This document shows positions 1,141 to 14,797 of a stretch of 15,323 nt of DNA, one piece after another. The stretch's first letter is position 1. Every line of letters begins with the position of its first letter. This DNA comes from a virus (Duplodnaviria > Heunggongvirae > Uroviricota > Caudoviricetes), in the IMG/VR virus record IMGVR_UViG_2609459790_000002, positions 1 to 15,323 of that record; one strand, given 5' to 3'. A model generated the notes under the pieces. That model was given only the letters and a program-made list of their open reading frames with translations. It ran no database searches and had not been told where the DNA came from. The position numbers were made by a program, and so were the translations under genes.

Positions 1141-1304
1141 GTGATAATGATTATCATCTACATATCACAACGTGCGTGGAGGCCATCAAACCACGTCAAA
1201 TAATCAATTATGACGCAGGTATCGTATTAATTGATCTGCATCAACTTAACGTAAAAACAACTTCAGACAATACAAATCAGCGACACTGAATACGGGGCAA
1301 CCTC

Positions 1305-2733: not shown

Positions 2734-3004
2734 GATGTTACCGTAGTATGTGAGTATCCATCGAATAGACACCAAGCAAAAAAGCTCCCGAAGGAGCCTT
2801 CATTTTCACTTTTTTAAATCCAACGACAGACGGCTGGCATTTAAGTATTGTGAAATATTATCAAATGTAATCATCATTGATTTACAAAAGATACATTTTG
2901 CCCCGAAAGGATTCATGTCAGAAACATCAAAAGATGATGTTCTATACTGGGAACCATGACAACACGGGCATCTAAAGTGAATATGGTTTGTAATATTGTC
3001 TACC

Positions 3005-3217
3005 TCAAAGCGCCACTACATGAACAGCGGCAGGACCTTTAGGTCCGTTCTCAATACCAAATTCAACTTCCTGATTCTCAGTTAATGTTTTGAAATCGTT
3101 GCTCTGAATTGCTGAGAAATGGACAAACACATCTTTGCTGCCATCTTTCGGCGTGATGAAACCAAAACCTTTTTCAGGGTTAAACCATTTCACTAAACCA
3201 GTCATTTTGTTAGACAT
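3005..3217 (-). CDS. cspI: Cold-shock protein, CspA family, 70 aa
   Basis: [70 protein letters not shown] carries RNP1 (KGFGFI) and RNP2 (VFVHF) motifs. AAGG SD 8 nt upstream of the ATG. Sequence and position match Qin cspI. Confidence 0.9.
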
Positions 3218-3579
3218 AATTATTACCTTTTGAAGAAATTAGCCCTTGGGCAGAATGGTCCGAAAAAAAATATCAGAGAGAAAAACCAACAAGGAAATCT
3301 CAAGAGGTACAAATAATAAAATTATAACAATGACTGCTTCAGATAAATTTGTAACAAACCAGAACACCATTAACGCATGATTAACCACCCATAGCAAGGA
3401 TTACTTTTGTAAAGAAAAACACAGCAATGAAAGAATAGCTTTATTTATTAATAAAACGTGTCATTCTGATTAAGACCTTTTATCTTACCCTTAAGATTTC
3501 AGGAATTTTGGCTCATGGAAGAGTCCTTTTTATTTAAATTTTACATTCCGCGATGTAAATGTTCCGATTTAATATTACC

Positions 3580-5607: not shown

Positions 5608-5888
5608 GAGATTGTGGTGCTTTTTGTGGGAGTCATCCACTTACGCACTTTGTTTTGCCATGCCAGCAGTTAGCTTCTGCTGTAAAACTATTCATGCAGC
5701 AAACCTGCACTTCACCACAATGGTTAGCATACTTTTCCTGATTAAGATTTTGCCAAATATGCTAGCCATTGTTTCATGTATTGGACCTCCTTACTTTTTA
5801 TTAAAGAGATCCAATATTCACTACTCTGTCCGTATCTCTACTCAGGCATCAGCCTTCTTCGTTATCGTATACAGACGAGCGATGAATT

Positions 5889-6104
5889 TTAATCAGTAAT
5901 GATGACATTTGCTGCTGCAGGACCTTTAGCACCACTCTCTATAGAGAAGGTAACCTTTTGACCTTCAAATAAGGTTCGATAATTATCATTCTGAATCGCA
6001 GAAAAATGCACAAACACATCTTTACTACCATCAACAGGAGAAATAAAGCCGAAACCTTTATCAGCGTTAAACCATTTTACTAAACCAGTCATTTTATTTG
6101 ACAT
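5889..6104 (-). CDS. cspB: Cold-shock protein CspB, 71 aa
   Basis: [71 protein letters not shown] with RNP1/RNP2 motifs. AAGGAA SD 7 nt upstream of the ATG at 6102-6104. Long AT-rich 5' leader region as in csp genes. Confidence 0.9.
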
Positions 6105-6404
6105 TCTACATTCCTTAACTTGAGCCTTTCGGCATAAATGGTTTGCATAACAGAAACGACTTCGTACTTAATTGGAGAGACTCAAAGAAGGAATAAGTGA
6201 ATAACACCTGAAATGAGAACTGCTTTAGTAAACTACTTCGTATATCGTCTGTTCTTCAAACCGACGCAATCATTAACGCATAGTTGAACATATGAAGCAA
6301 TGTTTATTTTAGACATCCAGCCATCTTCAACCCCATCAAAAAACTATAGCTTTCTTCAGGAACGTGTGTATAGTGCGCCAAGTTATCAGTATTAAGGAAT
6401 TTTT

Positions 6405-10475: not shown

Positions 10476-10571
10476 GCTTAGGGCAAGTCACGAAGGAAGT
10501 CAGAAAGTAGTCGTAAGAACGGTGATCACTGTCCGCTTTGTGCCAGAAGCGGATGTTACTTCTTGCATATT

Positions 10572-11483
10572 TCAATTTTCTTCTCCCCACAGCGGTGTAT
10601 CTCCTAACGCTTTAGCAATAAAATCAACAAAGCTGCGAACCTTGAAAGGAATACGGATCGCGCTGGGATAAACAGCCTGAATAGTAAGTTCAGTCGTCCG
10701 GTATGCTGGCAGCAGCTTTATCAGCTTGCCCTGCTTAATATGCTCGCCAAAAACAAAGTTGGGCCCGTAAGCAATGCCTGTTCCGGCCAGTACGGATTCA
10801 AGAAGCAACTGAATGTTATTGGCAGTCATACGGCATGGGCCTTCAATACTGTGCGGCCTGCCTTGTGCATCATAAATCGTCCAGTCTCCCGCTGAAACCG
10901 CCTGGCTGAACGCCAGTCGAGGCGCACGGGAAAGATCATCCGGCGTCTCTGGTGTGCCATGTTTTTTCAAATACTCCGGTGAAGCGCACAAAACCATCCT
11001 GCAAGGTGCCAGCCGCCGCGTAACCAGTGTCGGATCCTCAAAACGCCCAACTCGGATGGCAACATCGATTCGATTTTCGAGCAGATCGGCGTATTTATCC
11101 TCCAGTACAACGTCCAGACTGACCTCCGGAAATTGCTCCAGGTAGCGTGATACGATCCTACCAAGATGCATTGCACCGAAGGCGACCGGTGCTGCAACGC
11201 GAAGCAACCCCTTCGGTGTTTTCTGAACATCACTGGCTTCCCGGTTCGCATCCTCAAGAACCTCAAGAATAACTTTGCAACGTTCATAATACCGCTCACC
11301 GGCATCCGTCAGGCTAAGACGGCGTGTTGAACGCTGAAGAAGTCGTACATTTAGATCAGATTCTATAGCGCTGACATGCTTTCCTGCCATTGCAGCCGAA
11401 AGCTTAAAACGTCTCGCGGCGGCGGCGAAACTGCCTTCATCCACTGCCGCGATAAAAATCTGCATGCTGGTGAACCTGTCCAT
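10572..11483 (-). CDS. LysR-family transcriptional regulator (LTTR), 303 aa
   Basis: N-terminal wHTH signature MDRFTSMQIFIAAVDEGSFAAAARRFKLSAAMAGKHVSAIESDLNVRLLQRSTRRLSLTDAGERYY followed by a substrate-binding domain. Divergent from the adjacent hydrolase gene. Confidence 0.85.
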   Translation of the reverse strand: MDRFTSMQIFIAAVDEGSFAAAARRFKLSAAMAGKHVSAIESDLNVRLLQRSTRRLSLTDAGERYYERCKVILEVLEDANREASDVQKTPKGLLRVAAPVAFGAMHLGRIVSRYLEQFPEVSLDVVLEDKYADLLENRIDVAIRVGRFEDPTLVTRRLAPCRMVLCASPEYLKKHGTPETPDDLSRAPRLAFSQAVSAGDWTIYDAQGRPHSIEGPCRMTANNIQLLLESVLAGTGIAYGPNFVFGEHIKQGKLIKLLPAYRTTELTIQAVYPSAIRIPFKVRSFVDFIAKALGDTPLWGEEN

Positions 11484-11595
11484 AACTTACCACCATTCGA
11501 TAATCAGAGTATCGGCTGTCGACACAATTACGCTGATTATCATCACTCATGACAGCAATTACCATTACCTTAATGACATGAAGAGGCATGAGACG

Positions 11596-12756
11596 ATGAA
11601 AATTAAGGTGAATGGAACGGGTATCCACATTGAGCAACAGGGCAGCGGTGAAATTGCACTGGTATTTTTGCATTATTATGGCGGTTCATCCCGTACATGG
11701 GAGAGCGTGATAAGTCAGTTACCTGACCACTACCGCACAGTTGCAATCGACCACCGGGGCTGGGGGGGCTCAGACGCACCTAAATCAGGATACCGAATTG
11801 GTGACCTTGCTCGGGATGCCGAAGGGGTTATTTCAGCGCTTGAGCTTAAACGCTACATTCTTATTGGCCATTCGATGGGGGGAAAAGTTGCCCAACTGAT
11901 GGCGTCGCGTCGGCCTGCAGGTCTTGAAGGCCTGATGCTTATCGCTCCCTCTCCACCTTCACCTATGCGTCTCACGCCTGAGCAGCGCGATACGTTATCC
12001 AGCGCATATAACAGCCGCGAATCTGTCGGCTTTGTGATTGATAATGTCCTGACAGCGGGGGCACTAAGTTCTGCTCTGCGTGAACAGGTAATCGAGGACA
12101 GTTTGAGGGCCTCATCCGAGGCCAAAGAAGGCTGGCCTAATACGGCTATCGGCGAAGACATTACCCAGGAAGTGGCCTCAATTAATGTCCCTGTGACGGT
12201 CATTTCAGGGGAGTTGGATCGTGTAGACCTTCCGGCTACTCTGCAAAGAGAATTGCTGCCCCTTATTTCACATGCATCAATGTATATTATTCCAGACGTC
12301 GGACATCTCTTGCCTCTGGAGGCCCCTACAGAGGTCGCCAGCCACCTGTTAAAATTTACAGCCGCCATTGAAGGGGGGACAGCAGTCTACCATTCGCCTG
12401 TCGAAACGATAGCCGCGTTTGATGATGCTTTCAATGCAGGCAGGGTTGATGACCTGCTGGCTCTGTTCAGTAACCGTGCCACTATGAAAATGACTGATGG
12501 TGTGGTCATCGAAAGCGATCCTGAAAAGCTTCGGGACACTTTTTTGTCACTGACATCATCCCAGCCAGTTATCAGAAACCATATCCGCTCGATCCTCTCC
12601 GCCGGTGAAATTGCTCTGCTTATTATTGACTGGACTTTGACCATAACCACCAAGGATAGAACACTGCACGAAGAGTCCGGTACAGCAACGCAGGTGTTGT
12701 TGCGAAGCGTTGACGGAGGTTGGCGGCTGCTGATTTCAAATCCATCAGGAACGTAG
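11596..12756 (+). CDS. Alpha/beta-hydrolase fused to a C-terminal NTF2-like / SnoaL-like domain, 386 aa
   Basis: ATG at 11596 with an AAGAGG SD 9 nt upstream; earlier in-frame ATGs at 11464 and 11578 lack an SD and would overlap the LysR start. Nucleophile elbow GHSMGG, HRGWGGSD motif, His in PDVGHLLPLE. The C-terminal 115 aa (AAFDDAFNAGRVDDLLALFS...WRLLISNP) is NTF2/SnoaL-like. Confidence 0.8.
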   Translation: MKIKVNGTGIHIEQQGSGEIALVFLHYYGGSSRTWESVISQLPDHYRTVAIDHRGWGGSDAPKSGYRIGDLARDAEGVISALELKRYILIGHSMGGKVAQLMASRRPAGLEGLMLIAPSPPSPMRLTPEQRDTLSSAYNSRESVGFVIDNVLTAGALSSALREQVIEDSLRASSEAKEGWPNTAIGEDITQEVASINVPVTVISGELDRVDLPATLQRELLPLISHASMYIIPDVGHLLPLEAPTEVASHLLKFTAAIEGGTAVYHSPVETIAAFDDAFNAGRVDDLLALFSNRATMKMTDGVVIESDPEKLRDTFLSLTSSQPVIRNHIRSILSAGEIALLIIDWTLTITTKDRTLHEESGTATQVLLRSVDGGWRLLISNPSGT

Positions 12757-12936
12757 TGAGTTCAGTAAGAATAGCTTGCGCTAGCAATATCGCGTGGCTG
12801 CAGAGAGGTAAGTGACATCCGCCACCACCCGCATGCCGTTTTAAGGCATGCGGTAATAACGATGAGCGCAAGATTGCTGTTATGTCTTGCTGCTTTCGGA
12901 GCGCCTGCTTTTCGCTCTTAGCGGACATTAGCATAG

Positions 12937-14499
12937 GCTATTTACCATAACGCCTCATTACGCGCACCGCCCAGACTGACTCAGCGCGTTTCTGGCATAT
13001 CCCCGGTAAAACAAGTAACAAACCACCCGAAAATGAACACCAGAAACGCGACTTAAGAATCTACCCTATGAATGGATATGCACTCAACCGAATCGATCTT
13101 GGTTTCAATCTTTTTTATCGGGATCAGGCTTCTTTTTAGGTAACTTCGGGGGCTTAACTTGCTGATGACTTTGCGTTCGGCGCGTAAGCCAGGGATGGTC
13201 AGCTTTAGGTTTAACATAGTATTTTGAGCGTAAATCAATACGGGCATTATCCACTCGTTCATGGACACTCTTTTCATCATCCAGTGGTATAGGCTCCGGG
13301 CCATCAACATACTTTTCCCAGCCCAGCGCTTTCCCGTCATACAGAACGTTAATTTCACCGTCAAAGTTCTCGCATACAGTAACAACCGAATGCCTAAGTC
13401 GATATCCCCGGCCCTCACTGCGTACCTGAAACGCACTGCTTTTGTACTGGAAAGTGAGATTTTTAGACAGAACGCGCTTCGCCTGTAGGCTGAAGATATA
13501 ACCCAGTTCCTCTTCAGAATGGTGCACATCAAGATGAGCATTATCAGTAGTACGAGGCGACGTAGCGAACCGGTTGTTATAGGCTTCAATAAAGGTCGGC
13601 AACCATGCATTTGCTGTTTCAATATCACTGATATTCTGAAGCCGCATTTCTTTGACCAGCCTGTCCTGTAGTGTCTGATTGGCGCGCTCTACCCGCCCTT
13701 TTGCCTGCGGGCTGTTGGCATGGATTGGCTCGATGCCCAGTGTCTTTATCGCACGAGTGAACTGGGTCAGCTCACCTTCCCGCTCTGGGTTATTTACCCT
13801 GAATATACTGTGTCTATCAGAGTAGAGAGCGAGCGGTACGCCATGATCATTAAGGTAACCCCGGAGGGTTTCCATGTAAGCCCGGGTTGTTTCAGCAGGC
13901 ACAAAACGCAACGCCATCAACGCACTGGTGGCATCATCAATGAAAACGATCAGTGTACATCTGGGGCCTCGATTTTCAAACCAGTCATGAGGTGAGCCAT
14001 CAATCTGGATCAGTTCACCGTAAGATGGTCGTCGCATGCGGCGTTGATATATACGGGCAATTTTACGACGGCGTTCACGCCATAACCCCTCTTCTATCAT
14101 CCACTTTCTGAGAGTTTCAACGGATAAAGATAAACCGTGTATCTCGCGCAATTTTTCGCACGCAAACGTAGGTCCAAAATCAGCGTAACGGCCTTTGAGG
14201 AGTGAAATTACTGTTGCTCTGAATTCAGTAGAAAAGGAATTATTAGGACGCTTTCCACGTCGGTGGGAAACCAGACCAGAAGGCCCTTCATTTCTATACC
14301 GTTGCACCAGACGTTTAACCTGCCGAATAGAAATGCCAATGCGTGCCGCAGCTTGTTCCTGAATAATCTGAAGTCGGTGGAGTTCCTTATGACTCATCGT
14401 AACAGTCTCTTTGATCATGAAAAATCCCCCAGAGAATTGTCTGGGGACATTTTAGAATGGTTCAAAGGGGACATTACAGCTTGGTGTTAACAATAGCCT
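12937..14499 (-). mobile_element. Insertion sequence carrying the 437-aa DDE transposase; terminal inverted repeats not resolved (ends approximate)
   Basis: Single transposase gene with about 80-170 nt flanks. The only candidate terminal match found by eye is AGGCTATT (12937-12944) against AATAGCCT (14492-14499), which is at chance level. Boundaries are therefore provisional. Confidence 0.35.
13105..14418 (-). CDS. DDE transposase with rve integrase-core domain (IS481/ISNCY-like), 437 aa
   Basis: N-terminal HTH (GISIRQVKRLVQRYRNEGPSGLVSHRRGKRP), DDE-type core (LIQIDGSPHDW..., LALYSDRHSIF, ...RVERANQTLQ) and a Lys/Pro-rich basic tail. ATG at 14416-14418 with a GGGGGA SD. Family assignment is from motif recollection only. 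Confidence 0.8.
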   Translation of the reverse strand: MIKETVTMSHKELHRLQIIQEQAAARIGISIRQVKRLVQRYRNEGPSGLVSHRRGKRPNNSFSTEFRATVISLLKGRYADFGPTFACEKLREIHGLSLSVETLRKWMIEEGLWRERRRKIARIYQRRMRRPSYGELIQIDGSPHDWFENRGPRCTLIVFIDDATSALMALRFVPAETTRAYMETLRGYLNDHGVPLALYSDRHSIFRVNNPEREGELTQFTRAIKTLGIEPIHANSPQAKGRVERANQTLQDRLVKEMRLQNISDIETANAWLPTFIEAYNNRFATSPRTTDNAHLDVHHSEEELGYIFSLQAKRVLSKNLTFQYKSSAFQVRSEGRGYRLRHSVVTVCENFDGEINVLYDGKALGWEKYVDGPEPIPLDDEKSVHERVDNARIDLRSKYYVKPKADHPWLTRRTQSHQQVKPPKLPKKKPDPDKKD

Positions 14500-14797
14500 G
14501 CTTCTCCGTGCCTTTCGGCACGTAAGAGGCTAACCTACATGTGTCTAGCATGAAATTGGCCTCAGATTAATGTTAAGCGTCTTGCAGGACGCGTAATGTT
14601 AACTGGGGCTTTTCTCTATCTGCCGTTGGTGTCCATGCCCGAGGCAGATAGCCTCAAGCACCCGCAGTCATTCTACTTAACTAAGATTTCCCCGCAAACC
14701 GTTTTTGTCCAGCACAGTAAATATCCAACTAAACCAATGGAGTTCGCTGTATTTACCGCCAGTATTCAATGCACATGACCGCCATGAACACCCCTAA

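Follow-up and report, generated by a model that had tools for sequence, protein, structure and literature searches.

[quoted passage not shown] In the stretch of viral DNA analysed here (the window, 15,323 nucleotides), such a regulator gene lies back to back with the gene of an alpha/beta-fold hydrolase, its presumed target, and the region between them contains an inverted repeat with widely spaced arms around a GTCGAC core. The original prediction tentatively read this repeat as the LysR operator. We asked whether the repeat is the element that the regulator recognizes, or whether its arms belong to smaller units, and orthologous loci were compared to decide between these explanations and others.

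The divergent gene pair and the inverted repeat between its starts

The regulator has the architecture of a LysR-type protein, with an N-terminal HTH_1 domain (PF00126, 7.4e-17, residues 6-63) and a C-terminal, PBP2-like LysR_substrate domain (PF03466, 3.5e-39, residues 89-292), both above the gathering scores, in about 300 amino acids. Its best solved relative was 3hhg (1.8e-50, full-length match), and 3mz1 and 3szp/3t1b were also matched; we take these structures to be those of Neisseria meningitidis CrgA and Vibrio cholerae AphB. The best NCBIfam models were YafC, AaeR, and TtdR, all with scores far below the cut-offs (222 against 470 for YafC), and for this reason the regulator is not considered an orthologue of any named member. 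These matches place it in the CrgA/AphB/YafC/AaeR-like subgroup of LysR regulators. It has in common with the CrgA/AphB/YafC/AaeR/TtdR subgroup an N-terminus of the form MDxxxxMxxF and a recognition helix of the SxAxxSKH type. The N-terminus MDR(F/L)TS(M/L) is kept in all orthologues of the regulator, and the helix-turn-helix recognition region of the window's protein reads LSAAMAGKHVSAIE.

The size of the intergenic region depends on the start of the hydrolase gene, whose reading frame is open upstream to position 11464; one RefSeq record annotates that longer, 430-aa form. The hydrolase orthologues are annotated at 387 aa, single-base indels occur among them upstream of 11596, and a motif of the GAGG/GGAG type is present in them at the place of the Shine-Dalgarno sequence. 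Because of the 387-aa orthologues, the upstream indels, and the Shine-Dalgarno sequence preceding 11596, the start was set at this position. The intergenic region then extends from 11484 to 11595, between the lysR ATG (11483, minus strand) and the hydrolase ATG (11596), and measures 112 bp, as the original prediction had it. The coordinates of all features are collected in Table 1.

Table 1. Positions of the genes, sequence elements, and terminal hairpins discussed in the text.
Feature	Position	Strand	Basis or remark
LysR-type transcriptional regulator gene, 303 aa	10572-11483	minus	Pfam HTH_1 and LysR_substrate
Alpha/beta-fold hydrolase gene with C-terminal SnoaL-like/DUF4440 domain, 386 aa	11596-12756	plus	Abhydrolase_1/6 matches
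Shine-Dalgarno sequence AGAGG of the hydrolase gene	11582-11586	plus	9 nt before ATG 11596; read from the sequence
Left arm of the long repeat, ATAATCAG	11500-11507		11500-11503 form most of half-site 1 of the 17-bp dyad
Right arm of the long repeat, CTGATTAT	11533-11540		11533-11535 unconserved; remainder forms most of the third half-site copy
17-bp interrupted dyad CGATAA-TCAGA-GTATCG	11498-11514		Proposed high-affinity RBS; 7/8 symmetric pairs in the window
Conserved block that includes the dyad	11495-11518		Consensus ATTCGATAA-N5-TTATCGACTG; information content
Third half-site copy ATTATCA(T), isolated	11536-11543		Proposed activation-site (ABS) contact; coincides with the predicted -35 TTATCA, 11537-11542
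Central palindrome TGTCGACA	11517-11524		Contains GTCGAC; not conserved as a palindrome
Hydrolase promoter, predicted -10 TACCAT	11560-11565	plus	Implies a start near 11572
Left-end 24-nt hairpin GTCCGCT-TTGTGCCAGA-AGCGGAT	10531-10554		Loop nnGTGCCAnn
Right-end 24-nt hairpin GCCTGCT-TTTCGCTCTT-AGCGGAC	12903-12926		Loop nnTCGCTCnn

The 8-bp inverted repeat described in the original prediction is present in this region, its arms 25 nt apart and GTCGAC at 11518-11523 between them, and it is longer than had been reported. Its perfect part measures 9 bp (GATAATCAG at 11499-11507 and CTGATTATC at 11533-11541), and when the arms are extended to 13 nt (11499-11511 and 11529-11541), 12 of the 13 positions are complementary. 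To estimate the chance of such a repeat, the 112-bp intergenic region was shuffled 400 times with its dinucleotides preserved. A perfect 8-bp inverted repeat with a gap of at most 40 nt arose in 5.5% of the shuffles, and the entire 15.3-kb window contains 16 different 8-bp repeats of the same inverted kind, about one per kb, so that the 8-bp form is only marginally unusual. A 9-bp repeat arose in 1.75% of the shuffles and 13-nt arms with at most one mismatch in none of the 400; the extended repeat is beyond chance expectation in the window's lineage. The long dyad has its symmetry centre at base 11520, and GTCGAC with the surrounding palindrome has its own at 11520.5; the two are slightly off, by half a base, and are not strictly concentric. 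A second 8-bp inverted repeat, which spans the hydrolase start (11567-11574 and 11602-11609), was unconserved in the orthologues and was rejected.

Conserved elements in orthologous intergenic regions

The gene pair was found on 13 Klebsiella and Enterobacter plasmids (99% identity in one of them, 79-84% in the others), in 12 GTDB species genomes (regulator 78-100% identical), and in 70 of the 80 metagenome loci that a hydrolase profile had retrieved (regulator 47-100% identical). A search for the pair in complete E. coli genomes gave no match. In all loci with available upstream sequence and a detected LysR gene, the two genes are divergent, with gaps of 109-163 bp among the aligned orthologues. 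The location of the region, flanked by the regulator gene and a target transcribed away from it, is the one expected of an operator. For phylogenetic footprinting, 53 distinct intergenic haplotypes from plasmids, GTDB genomes, and metagenomes were used, with regulators of 59-100% amino acid identity. One outlier, L162, whose regulator is 47% identical, was kept apart from this set, and distant LysR relatives from the GTDB scan (at most 42% identity) that have no hydrolase neighbour were left out. Between 11488 and about 11566 the alignment of the 53 haplotypes has no gaps, an unanchored MAFFT alignment yielded the same conserved columns and blocks, and the conservation of each column was measured as weighted information content over the set.

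Exactly three blocks of high information were obtained, located at 11495-11503 together with 11508-11518, at 11536-11543, and at 11560-11565, and the stretches between them drift. The first consists of ATTCGATAA followed, from 11508, by (A)TTATCG-A-CTG, with 1.2-2.0 bits per column and 0.04-0.5 bits in the spacer at 11505-11507. Within this block lies a 17-bp interrupted dyad of 6-N5-6 geometry, whose half-site centres are 11 bp apart. Its half-site columns carry 1.4-2.0 bits and its spacer columns 0.04-0.5 bits; CGATAA-N5-TTATCG is perfect in 20 of the 53 haplotypes and has a single mismatch in 21 more, the window's copy among them. Of the symmetric pairs, the outer five remain complementary in 48-53 of the 53 haplotypes, and A11495 (1.75 bits) and T11517 (2.0 bits) extend the symmetry further. 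A symmetry of this kind reads as the signature of a dimeric DNA-binding protein and not of a promoter hexamer.

The second block is an isolated further copy of a half-site. All 53 haplotypes have A, T, T, A at 11536-11539, TTATCA is found in 45 of them, and in most orthologues the right half-site of the dyad has the same sequence, ATTATC. This third half-site starts (11537) at a fixed distance of 28 nt past the start of the dyad's right half-site (11509). No consistent partner for it was found across the 53 haplotypes when an activation-site half-site was sought: the best position for a fourth, CGATAA-like half-site, at 11520, matches at least four of six bases in 23 haplotypes, CGATCC-like sequences at 11526-11531 occur in one subgroup, and CGATAA-N11-TTATCG occurs in L144 and L145.

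These blocks divide the long repeat. Beyond the part of the left arm that lies in half-site 1, its four remaining bases are spacer; T11504 shows moderate conservation and 11505-11507 show none. Seen in this alignment, the conserved core of the putative operator would be the 17-bp dyad, which holds the left arm, and the right arm would belong to a separate third half-site placed on a predicted -35 element. The reservation made in the original prediction, that a 25-nt spacing is longer than the classic LysR box, was justified.

The explanation closest to the original prediction is that ATAATCAG-N25-CTGATTAT, centred on GTCGAC, is itself the operator and acts as one symmetric unit. The long dyad is real (12/13 in the window, rare in the shuffles), conservation extends over 5-6 bp at the outer end of both arms, GATAA(T) and (A)TTATC, and in the close Enterobacterales sub-clade the 9-bp arms are 94% pairable when G-T pairs are allowed, a value reached by 3 of 500 shuffles. 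Over the whole set, however, the inner three bases of the arms (11505-11507 and 11533-11535) carry 0.04-0.9 bits. The pairs 11505:11535, 11506:11534, and 11507:11533 are complementary in 5, 13, and 29 of the 53 haplotypes, where independence predicts 12, 13.6, and 20.3, and only the last is modestly above expectation. GTCGAC, which had been proposed as the core, occurs at its position in only 3 of the 53 haplotypes. The palindrome around it is TATCGATA in the plasmid orthologues that form the closest diverged group (hydrolase 74-75% and LysR 85-88% identical), through a compensatory change from G:C to A:T, and it is missing from L015, L016, and most divergent orthologues; of its bases, only T11517 and A11524 are conserved. 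In addition, GATAAT and ATTATC are 37 bp apart from centre to centre, too far for one helix-turn-helix dimer, the compact dyad better explains the left arm, and the symmetry centres of the long dyad and of GTCGAC differ by half a base. We consider it improbable that the long dyad is the binding unit. What stands of the original prediction is the location, the protein family, and the overlap of both arms with conserved half-sites; the 8-N25-8 unit does not. Conservation of the dyad in orthologous intergenic regions, which had been proposed as a check, holds for the outer 5-6 bp of each arm and fails for the inner 3 bp and for GTCGAC.

Complementary arms could also form a functional hairpin in RNA or single-stranded DNA, for example as a leader structure. 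The 51-nt segment folds at -13.7 kcal/mol (z = -2.75), comparably on the other strand, an orthologue of 75% identity folds as well (z = -2.4), and the pairing excess of the close sub-clade (94.4%, 3 of 500 shuffles), although weak, includes one pair that occurs as AU, UA, UG, and CG. An excess of this size is nevertheless within the range that closely related sequences can give. In the divergent majority the long stem fails and only the short 17-bp palindrome folds, no covariation was found in the 53-haplotype set, and no Rfam family matches the operator region. Both arms, moreover, precede the predicted hydrolase start, and a lysR leader would include one of them at most. A structured cis-regulatory RNA or hairpin was rejected, given the absence of covariation and the loss of the stem in divergent orthologues, and we regard this explanation as hardly credible.

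The hexamers GATAAT and ATTATC in inverted orientation are likewise found in Fur boxes, and the element might be the site of another regulator such as Fur. The best match in the intergenic region to the 19-bp Fur consensus (GATAATGATAATCATTATC) is 13/19; no match within three mismatches is present there, and the likeness drops to 9-10/19 in divergent orthologues while the dyad stays intact. The likeness is superficial. The 6-N5-6 spacing also differs from that of the Fur hexamer array, and the element is inherited together with the LysR gene on plasmids and chromosomes and across genera. A Fur box was rejected, and a site for a regulator other than the LysR protein is very unlikely.

The association of the dyad with the regulator was followed through all of the fetched DNA. 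With at most one mismatch, the dyad has 73 matches in 786 kb, where about two would be expected by chance (an estimate), and 69 of the 73 lie in the present intergenic context. In one of the four exceptions, L127, the dyad precedes a second LysR copy (66% identical) by the usual distance, and the divergent neighbour of this copy is a different, MaoC-like gene. The dyad thus follows the regulator and not the hydrolase. It is present with at most three mismatches in 52 of the 53 haplotypes, all of which keep the recognition helix AMAGKHVS, the segment LSxAMAGKHVSxxE being essentially unchanged among them; the helix in two divergent sequences is AMAGK[HY]V, with Y for H and N for S. The outlier L162 has the helix APSQASKHVAALE (SQASKHVA) instead, and in the corresponding position a different perfect palindrome, GACCGAC-T-GTCGGTC. 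As is expected of the operator of a LTTR, the site stays with its regulator and differs where the recognition helix differs.

Promoter predictions and a model for divergent control

A standard promoter scan of the window's region with a threshold of 9/12 found nothing, and in its place candidate pairs were scored by the conservation of their position in the haplotype alignment. On the plus strand, the sigma-70-like pair that ranked first consists of TTATCA, in the second conserved block, and TAnnAT, in the third, with a score of at least 8/12 in 43 of the 53 haplotypes and of 8/12 in the window. TAnnAT always follows TTATCA after 17 nt; TA at 11560-11561 is invariant, and T11565 is nearly so (94% weighted frequency). 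The start predicted from this pair would give the hydrolase transcript a 24-nt leader containing the Shine-Dalgarno sequence, and relative to it the dyad centre (11506) would be at about -66 and the third half-site (11536-11542) at about -36 to -30. In the -35 block, A and T at hexamer positions 3 and 4, which are not consensus bases, occur in all 53 haplotypes, as does an invariant A just upstream. Because these bases make ATTATC identical to the dyad half-site, the conservation of the block argues for recognition by the regulator better than for sigma-70 constraint alone.

Other promoter candidates overlap the same blocks. A second plus-strand pair, with -35 TCGGCT at 11512 and -10 GATTAT at 11535, scores at least 8/12 in 32 of the 53 haplotypes and could explain part of the conservation of the first and second blocks. 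The lysR promoter is ambiguous between two weak minus-strand candidates, one with -10 GATAAT at 11541-11536, the other with -35 TTGCCG and a -10 inside the dyad, which is found mainly in the divergent group. Transcription of lysR would be expected to begin somewhere between about 11500 and 11530.

These predictions suggest a further explanation, in which a dedicated regulator site is dispensed with and the blocks are nothing more than core promoter sequences that overlap between the divergent genes, with GATAAT-like -10 hexamers facing each other at 11499-11504 (plus) and 11541-11536 (minus) and TTATCA plus TAnnAT serving the hydrolase. GATAAT is a 5/6 match to the -10 hexamer on both strands, and position-conserved pairs were found on both, including the minus-strand GATAAT and the right half of the dyad as a -10. 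The candidate -35 partners are poor, however (2-4/6), and promoter elements leave unexplained the strict dyad symmetry with its fixed N5, the symmetric flanking C/G and A/T positions, the dyad beside a LysR paralogue with another neighbour, and the different palindrome where the helix differs. That promoter elements account for all of the conservation is unlikely.

The reading we prefer, and hold to be probable, is that the 112-bp region is a conventional LTTR divergent control region, in which the long inverted repeat is a by-product of the half-site layout. A long repeat appears because half-site 1 (GATAA) and the last half-site (TTATC) necessarily face each other, and the extra complementary bases of the window's copy appear to be lineage-specific. 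As a lesser and more speculative possibility, the extended, 43-bp palindrome may have a function of its own in the Enterobacterales lineage. From the sequences, their conservation and spacing, and the co-inheritance of site and regulator, we infer protein binding, the two promoters, their start sites, and the direction of regulation.

In divergent promoters controlled by LTTRs, a high-affinity site is often found near -65, activation takes place through sites of low affinity near -35 and -10, and in the sliding-dimer model the downstream dimer shifts on induction (PMC4730206). Applied to the present locus, the regulator would bind CGATAA-N5-(G/T)TATCG at 11498-11514 as a dimer of winged-helix domains, with this dyad as its RBS. 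With 14 nt between the lysR ATG and the dyad, the minus-strand promoter must overlap the dyad or lie behind it; protein on the dyad would cover the lysR leader or promoter and repress lysR, which implies autorepression. The hydrolase gene would be transcribed from near 11572 by a weak sigma-70 promoter, formed by -35 TTATCA (11537-11542), a 17-nt spacer, and -10 TACCAT. The second DNA-binding dimer of a putative tetramer would contact a low-affinity ABS, whose one conserved element would be ATTATCA (11536-11542), on the -35; the protein may alternatively form octamers like those of CrgA. With inducer bound, the protein would reposition on the ABS and recruit RNA polymerase to the weak promoter, as the sliding-dimer model describes. 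The enol-lactonase/esterase-like character of the hydrolase and its SnoaL-like domain point to esters, lactones, and aromatic or polyketide-like compounds as candidate inducers.

The proposed arrangement would be that of the classical RBS/ABS operators of LTTRs, such as those of BenM/CatM at benA, CbnR, DntR/NahR, and OxyR, in several respects. Here, too, regulator and target are divergent, one presumably strong interrupted dyad with half-sites one helical turn apart lies beside the regulator start, about 65 bp upstream of a target start that is predicted, and a weaker downstream site would overlie the -35 of a weak target promoter (both predicted). Unlike in the classical operators, only one ABS half-site is conserved, and the literal textbook motif T-N11-A is absent from the dyad, in which GATAA/TTATC gives A-N11-T at the canonical positions and T-N9-A one base further in, although a 17-bp dyad of this geometry is typical of LysR boxes, which measure about 15-17 bp. 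A 6-N5-6 dyad resembles TGAA-N5-TTCA of MetR, and TrpI, rather than ATAC-N7-GTAT of BenM. A literature search for the regulator, or for a GATAA/TTATC half-site associated with LysR, found nothing relevant, and by its sequence features the locus appears to hold a LysR operator of the ordinary type that had not been described before.

The surrounding cassette and implications for the regulator family

The regulator and hydrolase genes form a discrete unit of 2.4 kb, at about 10531-12926, which is at least 98.5% identical in genomes of Klebsiella, Hafnia, Enterobacter, Cedecea, and Ewingella and in metagenome contigs; the flanks are unrelated. A 24-nt hairpin lies at each end, the two being in inverted orientation; the stems covary between loci and the loops are conserved. 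The same pairs of hairpins bound other cassettes on plasmids of Klebsiella, Enterobacter, and Pantoea, some of them in arrays with an 18-nt linker, and the hairpin doublet was found in 262 plasmid records and in 739 of 5426 E. coli genomes. In the one E. coli prophage that was examined, which is P2-like, the doublet lies between the genes for tail-fibre assembly and the tail sheath (the G/FI hotspot) and delimits two cassettes.

The homology between otherwise identical copies breaks off within the hairpin loops, and in the two-cassette array of pLH71-A the outermost half-stems are mutually complementary (GGCAGCT ... AGCTGCC). The loop breakpoints and this complementarity together suggest that the cassettes insert site-specifically into a pre-existing hairpin. 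No Rfam family covers the cassette hairpins and our literature search found no description of them, although older work on P2-like phages may be relevant; Nilsson et al. 2004 and Odegrip et al. 2006 possibly deal with insertions in the P2 hotspot. Only tentatively do we propose that regulator, operator, and hydrolase are carried as cargo by hairpin-bounded gene cassettes of a class that is little described or undescribed. If this is true, the operator would make the cassette a self-contained, portable, and self-regulated module. The context hints at a hairpin-targeted movement of small regulator-enzyme or defence modules between plasmids and P2-like prophage hotspots, and this could matter more than the operator itself.

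For the regulator, which is uncharacterised, and its presumed hydrolase/SnoaL target, our comparison provides a testable and well-supported operator, CGATAA-N5-TTATCG with a -35-proximal ATTATCA, and a promoter model. The pair is spread over plasmids and chromosomes of Enterobacterales, and the stakes are modest; the motif could be used to seek further members of the regulon and to build a reporter for finding the inducer. For LysR-type regulators, the lesson of this locus would be that a long inverted repeat in an intergenic region can reflect the layout of half-sites and not a binding unit.

Hairpin-bounded cassette carrying the LysR and hydrolase genes

The LysR and hydrolase genes form a 2.4-kb cassette (10531-12926 of the window), at the ends of which lie two inverted hairpins of 24 nt each. 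The cassette is found again in several genera with at least 98.5% identity and with unrelated flanks, and the homology breakpoints fall inside the hairpin loops. On 262 plasmid records the same hairpin pairs delimit other cassettes, some of which form arrays with an 18-nt linker. Of 5426 E. coli genomes, 739 contain the hairpin doublet; in the one E. coli genome examined, a P2-like prophage carries it in its tail-fibre/sheath hotspot. The 2.4-kb unit contains no recombinase, no Rfam family was found for the cassette hairpins, and a literature search found no paper on them.

Features of the window and comparison regions listed with the hairpin cassette
Feature	Position	Strand	Description
Left hairpin	10531-10554		7-bp covarying stem, conserved loop nnGTGCCAnn
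Right hairpin	12903-12926		7-bp covarying stem, conserved loop nnTCGCTCnn
Comparison locus L001	3362-8355
Comparison locus L165	7297-10501
Second inverted repeat	11567-11574 / 11602-11609		perfect, 8 bp; ACCTTAAT / ATTAAGGT
cspA thermoregulator 5' UTR	2978-3363	-	Rfam RF01766, full length, 113 bits
cspA thermoregulator 5' UTR	5873-6265	-	Rfam RF01766, full length, 159 bits
sok antitoxin RNA	14492-14663	-	Rfam RF01794, 104 bits
Fur box consensus match	1143-1161	-	16/19; GTAGATGATAATCATTATC

Hydrolase start and other elements of the window

The hydrolase reading frame is open for 132 nt 5' of the true start (11464-11595), overlapping the lysR start, and the RefSeq annotation of NZ_CP100498 lists this 430-aa hydrolase form together with a shortened 297-aa LysR. 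The annotation of orthologues (387 aa), indels in the upstream stretch, and a Shine-Dalgarno sequence point to 11596 as the start codon. The ribosome-binding site and the start codon of the hydrolase gene lie between the arms of the second inverted repeat; this repeat is not conserved in the orthologues with 75% identity and is therefore probably due to chance.

Elsewhere, the two RF01766 matches imply two putative cold-shock-protein-like genes, and the sok match indicates a candidate hok/sok-type post-segregational killing locus, which fits the idea that the window comes from a plasmid. A Fur box match this good arose in only one of 200 shuffles of the window; the match at 1143-1161 has no relation to the LysR locus.

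Operator variants in relatives of the regulator

On the metagenome contig Ga0157290_10000390 (L162), the LysR relative is 47% identical and differs in its recognition helix (APSQASKHVAALE), and in the intergenic region upstream of its gene a perfect 15-bp palindrome, GACCGAC-T-GTCGGTC, replaces the CGATAA dyad. Operator and recognition helix thus seem to have been swapped together in nature. Two soil-metagenome orthologues (L144 and L145) carry a clear extra CGATAA in the stretch that separates the dyad from the final half-site. Their layout is CGATAA-N5-TTATCA and then CGATAA-N11-TTATCG, so that four half-sites can be recognised, the second pair with unusual N11 spacing.

Comparison locus L127 encodes a second LysR copy (66% identical) that is convergent to the hydrolase gene and faces a MaoC-like hydratase gene. 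This copy has kept the dyad, as CGATAG-N5-TTATCG (L127 2214-2230), and the distance to its start is the usual one. The arrangement suggests that the regulator family controls more than one kind of target.
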